Source of the DNA: Escherichia coli
Lineage (GTDB): Bacteria; Pseudomonadota; Gammaproteobacteria; Enterobacterales; Enterobacteriaceae
Strand: one strand, 5' to 3'
NCBI RefSeq assembly: GCF_048403405.1
Contig: NZ_CP183129.1
Length of the DNA stretch: 64,000 nt
In this document: positions 24,712 to 26,439 of the stretch, piece after piece
Layout: each line of letters begins with the position of its first letter
Numbering within the stretch: the first letter of the stretch is position 1
Translations under genes and position numbers: made by a program
Notes under the pieces: generated by a model
The model's input: the letters and a program-made list of their open reading frames with translations, nothing else
Told to the model about the DNA's origin: nothing
Database searches by the model: none

Positions 24712-25904
24712 ATCATTTCGGTGGGTTCCTGCTTCAACGGGCGGCCTGACTGCACCATCCCTCCACAGGCAAGAACGGCGTGCCCCGCCGCTAAAATGTT
24801 ACGAGCGCCATTTACATCGGCGTTCGCTGTATATCCACATACCTGGCATCTGAATTTACTTTGTGACAGGCGATTTTCTTTCGCTGTATGACCACAGCAC
24901 GCGCAACGCTGGCTTGTGTACGCTGGCGGAACAGCAAGCACCTGACCGCCACGCCAGAGCTGCTTGTACTCAAGCTGGCGGCGCATTTCATACCAGCCCT
25001 GATCCAGTATCGAACGGTTTAAACCTGATTTTGCCCGGACATTGCGCCCCGGCTGGCTGACCGTACCCGCTGCTGACTTTGACATGTTACTGACCTTCAA
25101 ATCCTCAATGACTATCATTGCGTGGTTTTTGCTGACGGTCGTTGTGACTTTGTGAAGGTAGTCCCTGCGGATATTTGCGATACAGGAATGCAGTCGCTGT
25201 ATTTTGCGTTTCTGCTTCTGCCAGTTGTTGCTGAATTTGACCTTGCGGCTTAACTGTCGCTGAAGTCTCGCCAGCGTCTTCTGGTTTTTCTGAAAACTGT
25301 TTACAGGCTCAAAGACTGTGCCATCTGACAGCGTGGCGAGTTTAGCCACGCCAGCATCCAGCCCGACCATTGATGCTGAAGGGTGAACCGGAGTTGATAC
25401 TTCACTTTCTGTCTGAATACTGATGTACCACTTACCGCAGGACTGGCTGACAGTGACATTTTTCACAACACCCGTGACCTGACGGCTATTCCGGTAGCGC
25501 ATCCAGCCAAGTTTCGGCAGAAAAATACGGCTGTTTTCCTGATCGAGCTTAACGCCCTGCGGGTAGCGGAATGCATCATTCTGTCCCCGCTTTTTGAATC
25601 GGGGAAAAGCAGCCCGCTTCTGGAAGAAGTTTTTGTAAGCCCGCTCAAGGTCTTTCAGTGACTGTTGCAATGGCTGTGACGGGGCATCTTTAAGCCATTG
25701 CGTTTCAGTGGCATTTTTCCACTCAACCAGCCAGGAAGCCATTTTCCCGTAAGGGATGTATTTATTACCGGCCTCATGATTCTCATTCTGAAGCGCCAGA
25801 GCACGATTGAAAACGAAACGACATGCGCCTGCGAAGCGCCTCATTTCACGCTCCTGTTGACCACCGGGTCTTAACTGGAATTTAAATGCCTGTAGTCGTT
25901 TCAC
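24696..25904 (-). CDS. tnpB: TnpB (OrfB) RNA-guided endonuclease of an IS200/IS605 element (402 aa)
   Basis: GTG start at 25904; N-terminus [35 protein letters not shown]; C-terminal RuvC-like region with zinc finger CACCGHT...[18 protein letters not shown]. Confidence 0.9.
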
Positions 25905-25911
25905 AGGCCAA

Positions 25912-26439
25912 ATGATACTTTGGTCTGTGAAAAAAGAAACCGATATCCGGCGTGGAAGGCATTGTGTTTTCCTGATGCATGTTCACCTGGTCTTTGTCAC
26001 CAAATACCGACGTCAGATTTTTGACCATGACGCGACAGAAAAACTACGCACTTACTTTTCAAAGGTATGTGCTGATTTTGAAGCTGAACTGGTTGAAATG
26101 GATGGCGAACCAGATCACGTCAATTTGTTAATTAACTATCCTCCCAAACTGGCGATATCCAGTCTGGTAAACAGCCTCAAAGGCGTATCGGGTAGGTTAC
26201 TGCGACGAGATCGACCAGATATTGCCGTCAGGTATTACTACAAAGGCGTTTTGTGGAGTCCTGGCTATTTTGCCAGTAGCTGCGGAGGTGCGCCAATATC
26301 CGTCATCCGCCAATACATTGAACAACAGCAAACACCTGGTCAGGTGGAAAACCGCGCCTTATATCCCCGCCCTGAAGGACGGGGTTTTACGGCGCACCGG
26401 ATAAAGAAACAGTCAAAATCACTCAGCAAAACAGGCTGA
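25912..26439 (+). CDS. tnpA: TnpA Y1 (HUH) transposase of an IS200/IS605 element (up to 175 aa; the native C-terminus may be shorter)
   Basis: ATG at 25912; HCVFLMHVHLVFVTKYRRQIF first strand, conserved GGAPISVIRQYIEQQQ catalytic-Tyr region; the HUH position reads DHVNLL (His-Val-Asn). Confidence 0.85.
   Translation: MILWSVKKETDIRRGRHCVFLMHVHLVFVTKYRRQIFDHDATEKLRTYFSKVCADFEAELVEMDGEPDHVNLLINYPPKLAISSLVNSLKGVSGRLLRRDRPDIAVRYYYKGVLWSPGYFASSCGGAPISVIRQYIEQQQTPGQVENRALYPRPEGRGFTAHRIKKQSKSLSKTG

Follow-up and report, generated by a model that had tools for sequence, protein, structure and literature searches.

The divergent start region of IS609 as a probable compact bidirectional promoter of leaderless tnpB and tnpA messages, with a probably mis-annotated tnpA start

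The window of Escherichia coli DNA analysed here (64,000 nucleotides of contig NZ_CP183129.1) carries a copy of the insertion sequence IS609, a member of the IS200/IS605 family, within the yajI gene. The element shares 98% identity with the K-12 feature annotated as 'insertion sequence:IS609', which holds insQ and the tnpA pseudogene yncK, and its two genes, tnpB (insQ) and tnpA, diverge from a narrow central gap (Table 1). Specifically, the CAC at 25902-25904 is a minus-strand GTG and the first possible start of the 402-aa TnpB open reading frame (ORF), the ATG at 25912-25914 opens a 175-aa Y1-transposase ORF on the plus strand (25912-26439), and seven bases (25905-25911, AGGCCAA) separate these two annotated starts. 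The initial annotation had read the start codons in this way, GTG at 25904 and ATG at 25912, 7 bp apart, with the next in-frame TnpB methionine 20 codons downstream; the sequence bears this out, the methionine being codon 21, and RefSeq, through the Prokaryotic Genome Annotation Pipeline (PGAP), and the curated K-12 record use the same starts, 7 bp apart, in every copy examined. The gap between the two genes, which is the subject of this analysis, appears to launch at least one, and probably both, of the messages at the start codon itself, without a ribosome-binding site (RBS).

The products of both genes are recognizable members of their families. TnpB matches the Pfam profiles OrfB_IS605, Cas12f1-like_TNB and HTH_OrfB_IS605 and the NCBIfam profile guided_TnpB (E 4.6e-116, 388 bits, cutoff 100), and it retains the nuclease and zinc-finger motifs. 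The tnpA product matches Pfam Y1_Tnp (E 2.4e-40) and NCBIfam transpos_IS200 (E 5.1e-42), contains the HUH and catalytic Tyr motifs and matches the solved IS608 and ISDra2 TnpA proteins.

Table 1. Features of the IS609 copy and of its divergent start region (positions in the window; LE, left end; RE, right end; TSS, transcription start site; SD, Shine-Dalgarno sequence; TAM, transposon-associated motif)
Feature	Position	Strand	Remark
IS609 copy (IS200/IS605 family)	24653..26400		within yajI; limits from alignment to three further IS609 copies and the empty K-12 yajI site
IS609 ends			RE at low coordinates (TTGACATCC...), LE at high coordinates (...CACCGG)
tnpB (insQ)	24696..25904	minus	402 aa, GTG start; RNA-guided nuclease family, full length
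tnpA (Y1/HUH transposase)	25927..26439	plus	from the conserved start, GTG here; RefSeq start instead ATG 25912
Divergent control region	25905..25926		22 bp between the conserved start codons
8-bp core ATGATACT	25912..25919		ATTATACT in relatives; two overlapping -10 hexamers on opposite strands
-10 hexamer GATACT	25914-25919	plus	TATACT in relatives
-10 hexamer TATCAT	25917-25912	minus	TATAAT in relatives
Candidate tnpA -35 CTGTAG	25890..25895	plus	TTGTAG/TTGAAG in relatives; 18 bp from the -10, inside tnpB codons 4-5; weak match
tnpB TSS	25904	minus	equivalent of the mapped K-12 TSS; first base of GTG; leaderless mRNA
tnpA TSS, predicted	25927	plus	first base of the conserved start codon; from symmetry and conservation
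Inverted repeat TTTCACAGGCCAAA-(TGATAC)-TTTGGTCTGTGAAA	25899..25932		14-bp arms 25899-25912 and 25919-25932; Escherichia-specific
TnpB Met21 codon and AGGAG	25842..25855	minus	alternative start; codon 25844-25842, AGGAG 25855-25851, 6 nt upstream
Equivalent of K-12 TSS inside tnpA	26260	minus	antisense, reading toward tnpB; Kim et al. TSS 1501325, 28 reads
Equivalent of K-12 TSS inside tnpB	~25430	plus	antisense; weak (2 reads)
RE subterminal hairpin TCCACG-CCCTGAAGGA-CGTGGA	24662..24683	minus	downstream of tnpB
LE subterminal hairpin CCCCG-CCCTGAAGGA-CGGGG	26365..26384	minus	downstream of tnpA, inside the read-through part of the tnpA ORF
TTTAT (tnpB-sense strand)	26401..26405	minus	adjoins LE; probable target/TAM pentanucleotide
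Probable omega-RNA region	24640..24823	minus	tnpB 3' end and RE, then flank-derived guide; sub-threshold Rfam matches

The organization of the gap emerges from comparison with related elements. Sixty-six loci encoding TnpB relatives were taken from one-genome-per-species contigs, together with two plasmid relatives, and 27 of the retrieved loci (24 distinct start regions) form an IS609-like clade, to which all counts out of 27 refer and whose hosts include Serratia, Erwinia, Morganella, Xenorhabdus, Klebsiella, Yersinia, Pantoea, Proteus, Edwardsiella and others. One layout recurs in all 27, namely the tnpB start, seven bases of spacer (N7), an 8-bp core, seven or eight further bases (N7/N8) and the tnpA start, and on this alignment the evolutionarily conserved gap between the two genes is 22-23 bp rather than 7. 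The mean entropy is 1.66 bits in the tnpB-side N7, which occurs as 20 distinct 7-mers, 0.18 bits in the core and 0.32 bits in the tnpA-side spacer, with 0.53-0.66 bits at neighbouring third codon positions, and the core is conserved to the same degree as first and second codon positions. A pair of -10 hexamers, TATACT and TATAAT, overlapping by 4 bp on opposite strands, occupies the core in 22 of the 27 relatives; moreover, the -11 A and the -7 T of both hexamers are invariant in 26-27 of them, and variation is confined to the less critical hexamer positions. The tnpB-side hexamer lies 7 nt from its start codon and the tnpA-side hexamer 7 nt (18 relatives) or 8 nt (nine relatives) from its own. 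No Shine-Dalgarno (SD) sequence precedes the conserved tnpB or tnpA start in any of the 27 relatives or in the window copy.

The same alignment bears on where each gene begins. The triplet at 25912 is ATT in 23 of the 27 relatives and nine of them carry a 1-nt insertion between 25912 and the next start position; therefore, the 25912-25927 stretch cannot be coding in the family, and 25912 is not borne out as the functional start of tnpA. Instead, the tblastn match of TnpA starts in all of the relatives at the codon aligned to 25927, 22-23 bp from the tnpB start, this codon is ATG in 25 of the 27, and PGAP itself places the start of the Providencia tnpA at the equivalent position. Taken together, the real tnpA start of IS609 is most likely the codon equivalent to 25927, 15 nt downstream of the annotated ATG. 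Where an ATG does recur at this triplet among the relatives, it is in one case out of frame with tnpA. Conversely, the GTG at 25904 is well supported as the correct start of TnpB: the corresponding triplet is ATG in 24 of the 27 relatives, the first 15 codons vary in a coding fashion (0.13, 0.17 and 0.53 bits at codon positions 1, 2 and 3), positions 1-47 of the Pfam HTH_OrfB_IS605 profile align to TnpB residues 1-48, and the ISDra2 TnpB structures are collinear with the protein from residue 3 (E 1e-54). The suspicion raised in the initial annotation that one annotated start is wrong thus holds in part, in that the wrong one is probably that of tnpA and not, as had been suggested, that of TnpB with a start at Met21.

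A published map of transcription start sites (TSSs) provides an experimental anchor for the tnpB side. Kim et al. 2012 (PMC3415461) mapped the primary 5' ends of K-12 MG1655 with a library enriched by terminator exonuclease (TEX), and their Table S4 lists for ydcM, which is insQ, a TSS at 1501681 with 14 reads and a 5' untranslated region (5'UTR) of length 0; ydcM is among only 18 leaderless genes listed there for E. coli. The 51-mer given for this TSS ends in ...AAAG-TATCAT-TTGACCT-G and maps to the K-12 locus at the position corresponding to window 25904, 8 nt downstream of the minus-strand hexamer. The tnpB mRNA is therefore leaderless in the K-12 copy, and the TSS falls on the first base of the GTG rather than upstream of an internal codon, at which initiation of TnpB would have left an ordinary intergenic promoter region. 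By analogy, the tnpA mRNA would also be leaderless, as judged from the arrangement of the sequence. Leaderless translation in E. coli prefers a 5'-terminal AUG, GUG being much less efficient, and both starts of the window copy are GTG; a few extra 5' nucleotides already inhibit it, which fits the fixed length of N7.

These observations are best accommodated, with a probability of roughly 0.7, by a start region that works as a compact bidirectional promoter, with both messages leaderless and tnpA starting at 25927. Specifically, two sigma-70 -10 hexamers on opposite strands of the core would share the central TATA, and RNA polymerase bound in one orientation would start the tnpB mRNA at 25904, as experimentally shown for the K-12 copy, while polymerase bound in the other would be expected to start the tnpA mRNA at 25927. 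Leaderless messages on both sides would explain both the absence of SD sequences and the fixed spacer length. The ATG at 25912 would be a by-product of a T-to-G change in the shared core that also weakens both -10 hexamers. In the Serratia relative, an independent consensus promoter scan places TTGAAG-18-TATACT so that it ends 7 nt short of the tnpA ATG, and the candidate tnpA -35 sequence of the window copy is also constrained by tnpB coding. The expectation in the initial annotation that both promoters and both RBSs lie inside the opposite gene is accordingly to be narrowed: there are no RBSs and the -10 elements lie inside the 22-bp gap, and only the weak -35 regions would fall within the opposite gene.

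In Escherichia, the module differs from that of the other genera in ways that look attenuated. GTG replaces ATG at both starts, the T-to-G change in the core converts TATACT to GATACT and TATAAT to TATCAT and creates the ATG at 25912, and the candidate tnpA -35 has CTG for TTG; to judge from the sequence, these changes all point to lower expression. Moreover, the Escherichia copies carry a 34-bp palindrome with one GTG start codon in each arm, the TSS at 25904 and the predicted TSS at 25927 both lying within the arms. Its RNA would fold with -19.1 kcal/mol on the plus strand (z -5.3) and -15.4 kcal/mol on the minus strand (z -4.2); the copy of strain ST2747 is a perfect palindrome (-19.7/-20.5 kcal/mol), the K-12 copy reaches -13.5/-11.7 kcal/mol and those of other genera -1 to -9 kcal/mol. 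The N7 is complementary to the tnpA-side spacer only in Escherichia (7/7 including G-U pairs, against 1-4/7 in other genera), and the series AGGTTAA (non-coli Escherichia), AGGTCAA (K-12), AGGCCAA (window) and AGACCAA (ST2747) still pairs throughout on the plus-strand RNA via G-U wobble. Two intermediates, L003 and L049, combine a GTG tnpB start with an ATG tnpA start. A conserved, family-wide RNA hairpin was rejected, the inner stem occurring in Escherichia only; a 21-nt inverted repeat at 25888-25908 from a terminator scan was superseded by the 34-bp palindrome found by folding, and neither repeat is a terminator, as no U-run follows the stem on either strand.

IS10 and IS50 are protected against read-through transcripts by a fold-back of the RNA, and the Escherichia palindrome of IS609 resembles this arrangement in that it covers the start while the native TSS lies inside the repeat. 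The hairpin would form only in longer read-through RNAs that hold both arms, in which either start codon would be buried, and the leaderless transcripts, which lack the 5' arm, would be hairpin-free. The yajI promoter could supply such read-through RNAs, as could the internal start equivalent to the K-12 TSS at 26260; the 51-nt upstream sequences of both internal K-12 TSSs are identical in the window, and the start at about 26260 would yield a tnpA-antisense RNA together with a leadered tnpB transcript carrying both palindrome arms. The Escherichia module looks turned down by the GTG/GTG starts, the weakened -10 and candidate -35 elements and the palindrome. However, the stem of IS609 differs from a conserved fold-back stem in showing neither conservation nor covariation across related elements, and fold-back protection is one interpretation of a lineage-restricted palindrome that could be neutral.

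Several points weigh against a bidirectional promoter with two leaderless messages. At the start region, the consensus promoter scan of the window gives no hit, the E. coli hexamers being degraded, and the -35 matches are poor in both directions. The tnpA-side spacer at 25920-25926 (TTGGTCT/TTGGCCT) is near-invariant across genera while the tnpB-side N7 is random, an asymmetry that the promoter model does not explain. The tnpB TSS comes from 14 reads of a single dataset obtained under one growth condition, and Kim et al. list no K-12 tnpA TSS at the equivalents of 25927 or 25912, so that the tnpA half is a prediction; this absence is weak evidence either way, as K-12 tnpA is a pseudogene with a weakened promoter. 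The palindrome, moreover, is confined to Escherichia and may be neutral, the ATG at 25912 with an AGG 4 nt upstream could still serve on longer E. coli transcripts, and the register of the hexamers (4-bp overlap, TSS 8 nt past the hexamer) is set beside the 23-bp class of bidirectional promoters described below by TSS spacing alone.

It is unlikely, in view of the relatives, that both annotated starts are right in E. coli and that the 7-bp gap is real, with tnpA translated from ATG 25912, the AGG at 25905-25907 acting as RBS and a leadered transcript coming from inside tnpB. In each of the eight E. coli copies examined this ATG is in frame with tnpA, both PGAP and the curated K-12 record adopt it, the Escherichia N7 opens with AGG, and in K-12 the weak plus-strand TSS of 2 reads lies upstream inside tnpB; yet the triplet is ATT not only in most of the 27 relatives but also in the closest non-coli Escherichia copies, the AGG would form an SD duplex of only -2.5 kcal/mol at short spacing, and on a leadered plus-strand RNA the ATG would lie at the loop edge of the -19 kcal/mol hairpin with the AGG buried as well. 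The solved TnpA structures cannot tell a 138-aa from a 143-aa N-terminus, and they do not require the extra five residues. Hardly credible is a TnpB start at Met21 (25844), which would leave a normal 67-bp intergenic promoter region: the coding-type conservation of codons 1-20, the profile alignment from residue 1, the ISDra2 alignment from residue 3 and the TSS mapped at the GTG all oppose it, and an internal start at Met21 was rejected. The AGGAG-N6-ATG does form a duplex of -7.3 kcal/mol and is by far the best SD of the region, but synonymous or A-for-E changes reduce it to -2.2 to -4.3 kcal/mol in about half of the relatives, and in the relative L029 the Met21 position is Ile; this SD probably arises incidentally from Gln-Glu codons, and it could lead to an N-terminally truncated TnpB on leadered read-through transcripts. 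Very unlikely, too, is that the core and the tnpA-side spacer form a protein-binding operator or an A/U-rich, SD-independent translation enhancer on leadered mRNAs instead of -10 elements. The invariant positions obey the -10 rule on both strands, the tnpB TSS lies 8 nt past the minus-strand hexamer, so that the core is absent from the tnpB mRNA, and the element encodes no candidate regulator, as against a spacer conserved beyond the needs of a promoter discriminator and weak -35 elements, which such a reading would account for. A binding site for integration host factor (IHF) in the core was considered by eye and dropped, as the 3' half of the consensus mismatches.

Template switching at quasi-palindromes is a known mutational process, and it offers a possible, though somewhat doubtful, account of the 34-bp palindrome as a neutral product in a largely immobile and decaying element, with the GTG/GTG pair arising from copying between the arms. 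The restriction of the inner stem to Escherichia, the graded N7 series, the intermediates with GTG for tnpB and ATG for tnpA, and the tnpA pseudogenes in most copies inspected are what such an origin would leave behind. Complementarity of 6/7 by chance is, however, rare (22 of 16,384 7-mers, roughly 3% over about 20 independent N7 lineages), every variant keeps its plus-strand pairing through G-U, and the geometry matches the classical fold-back protection of insertion sequences.

The proposed promoter of IS609 fits a known class. In bidirectional promoters, the -10 elements of the two strands overlap and the divergent TSSs are 7-25 bp apart, most often 18 bp, with 10 and 23 bp also frequent; such promoters are over-represented in horizontally acquired DNA, and the binding of one RNA polymerase excludes the other. 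At basal activity the competition between polymerases is negligible, and it shows only once one direction is strongly activated (10.1101/2020.01.31.928960; PMC12825309). As in these promoters, the -10 elements of IS609 share bases through the symmetry of TATAAT, and the predicted TSS separation is 23 bp, one of the two TSSs being mapped. Unlike them, IS609 would have its start codons at both TSSs, so that the control region and both translation starts lie within 28 bp, and neither message would have a leader. With E. coli leaderless mRNAs (PMC3415461; reviewed in PMC9031893), insQ shares a TSS at the start codon, the lack of an SD and a -10 element 7-8 nt upstream; in contrast to their preference for AUG, the Escherichia IS609 copies begin with GUG, while the relatives begin with AUG.

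Within the same IS family, the tnpA of IS200 in Salmonella has its SD locked in a stem-loop of the 5'UTR and is controlled by the antisense small RNA art200 and by Hfq (Ellis et al. 2015, PMC4513863). IS609 would resemble it in a transposase kept at very low expression and in an RNA structure at the translation start as a brake, and differs from it in a conserved design that has no 5'UTR and in a candidate hairpin that is lineage-specific. Likewise, IS609 shares with IS608 and ISDra2 a Y1 HUH TnpA, a RuvC-type RNA-guided TnpB and a subterminal hairpin at each end, LE and RE; the omega-RNA expected at the tnpB 3' end and RE is a probable one in IS609, with sub-threshold Rfam matches. Unlike tnpA and tnpB of those elements, which run in the same direction, the IS609 genes are divergent; therefore, neither can use a promoter in LE and both depend on the central module. 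A literature search, itself incomplete, returned no paper on the IS609/insQ start region or its expression, nor on leaderless IS200/IS605 genes. The IS609 start region can be regarded as a new, unusually compact case of a known promoter class, combined with a probable mis-annotated start, and its novelty is modest.

A shared bidirectional promoter with leaderless messages would explain how divergent genes are expressed where there is no room for separate promoters or RBSs, and it ties a K-12 TSS from a 2012 supplement to the architecture of the element. The correction of the tnpA start touches thousands of RefSeq E. coli records, and predictions of TnpB expression or of its N-terminus should consider that proteobacterial members are typically without an SD and start at the transcript 5' end. 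The balance between TnpA, which acts in excision and transposition, and TnpB with its omega-RNA, which acts in retention by homing, is an active question, for which the shared -10 core offers a testable control point. As a conjecture, in IS609-type elements of Enterobacterales and beyond the symmetric core might commit each polymerase binding event to either TnpA (excision) or TnpB (retention/homing), and the Escherichia copies might be further silenced by the GTG starts and the palindrome. The initial annotation had foreseen coupled or mutually interfering expression of the two genes; such interference is structurally possible, given the overlapping -10 hexamers, and unlikely to matter for the attenuated copy of the window.

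Beyond the IS609-like clade, the gap measures about 57-60 bp in a divergent clade of more distant relatives (Photorhabdus, K. pneumoniae), which makes the module of 22 bp a derived compaction. Among the proteobacterial relatives of TnpB, down to about 52% identity and whether or not tnpA is present, the ATG follows a -10-like hexamer at a distance of 6-8 nt and lacks an SD. The relatives from Cetobacterium and Bacilli instead combine a leader with a canonical TTGACA/TATAAT promoter and an AGGAGG SD. The sets compared (L012, L026, L029, L031 and L045 for the proteobacterial loci; L058, L061, L062, L063 and L068 for Cetobacterium/Bacilli) suggest that the mode of tnpB expression may differ at the phylum level. 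Many copies on plasmids and chromosomes have tnpB but no tnpA. Two of the loci, L012 and L030, have the LE hairpin region immediately in front of tnpB, and a short A/T-rich stretch precedes the ATG; this indicates that copies of this type are deletion derivatives that keep the -10-like hexamer near the start.

The tnpA gene of the window has also lost its stop. The normal TAG at 26341-26343, present in the intact 143-aa copy of strain 21B8, is CAG in the window, in K-12 and in NDM3; without it, the ORF gains 32 residues and passes through the LE hairpin into yajI, and PGAP therefore flags the gene as a pseudogene ('missing C-terminus'). The start region is widespread, being found in 4,865 of 5,426 complete E. 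coli genomes, with a count of 9,246 E. coli copies. At the other end of the element, the Rfam matches at 24640-24823 fall below the gathering score (HgcC 23.8 bits, E 0.008, gathering 50; sot0042 17 bits, gathering 88), and the Rfam search returns nothing at the tnpB/tnpA start region.

Lastly, the insertion itself is typical in having subterminal hairpins with a common loop at both ends, no terminal inverted repeats and, relative to the empty site, no target-site duplication. In the window, ribD and nrdR on the minus strand are followed by yajI and tsx on the plus strand, and yajI, which codes for a lipoprotein (DUF3251 / SadB-YajI family), is broken by IS609 into two pseudogene fragments (24523-24652 and 26406-26810). 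TTTAT adjoins LE at three independent IS609 insertion sites, while the empty yajI site of K-12 (L004), set against window positions 26401-26405 and 24645-24652, has TTGAT; an empty yajI site with TTTAT was sought in complete E. coli genomes and not found, the best match having one mismatch. Either a lineage-specific single-nucleotide polymorphism preceded the insertion, or a near-cognate site was used and the base changed later. The yajI insertion is common to about 340 complete E. coli genomes.

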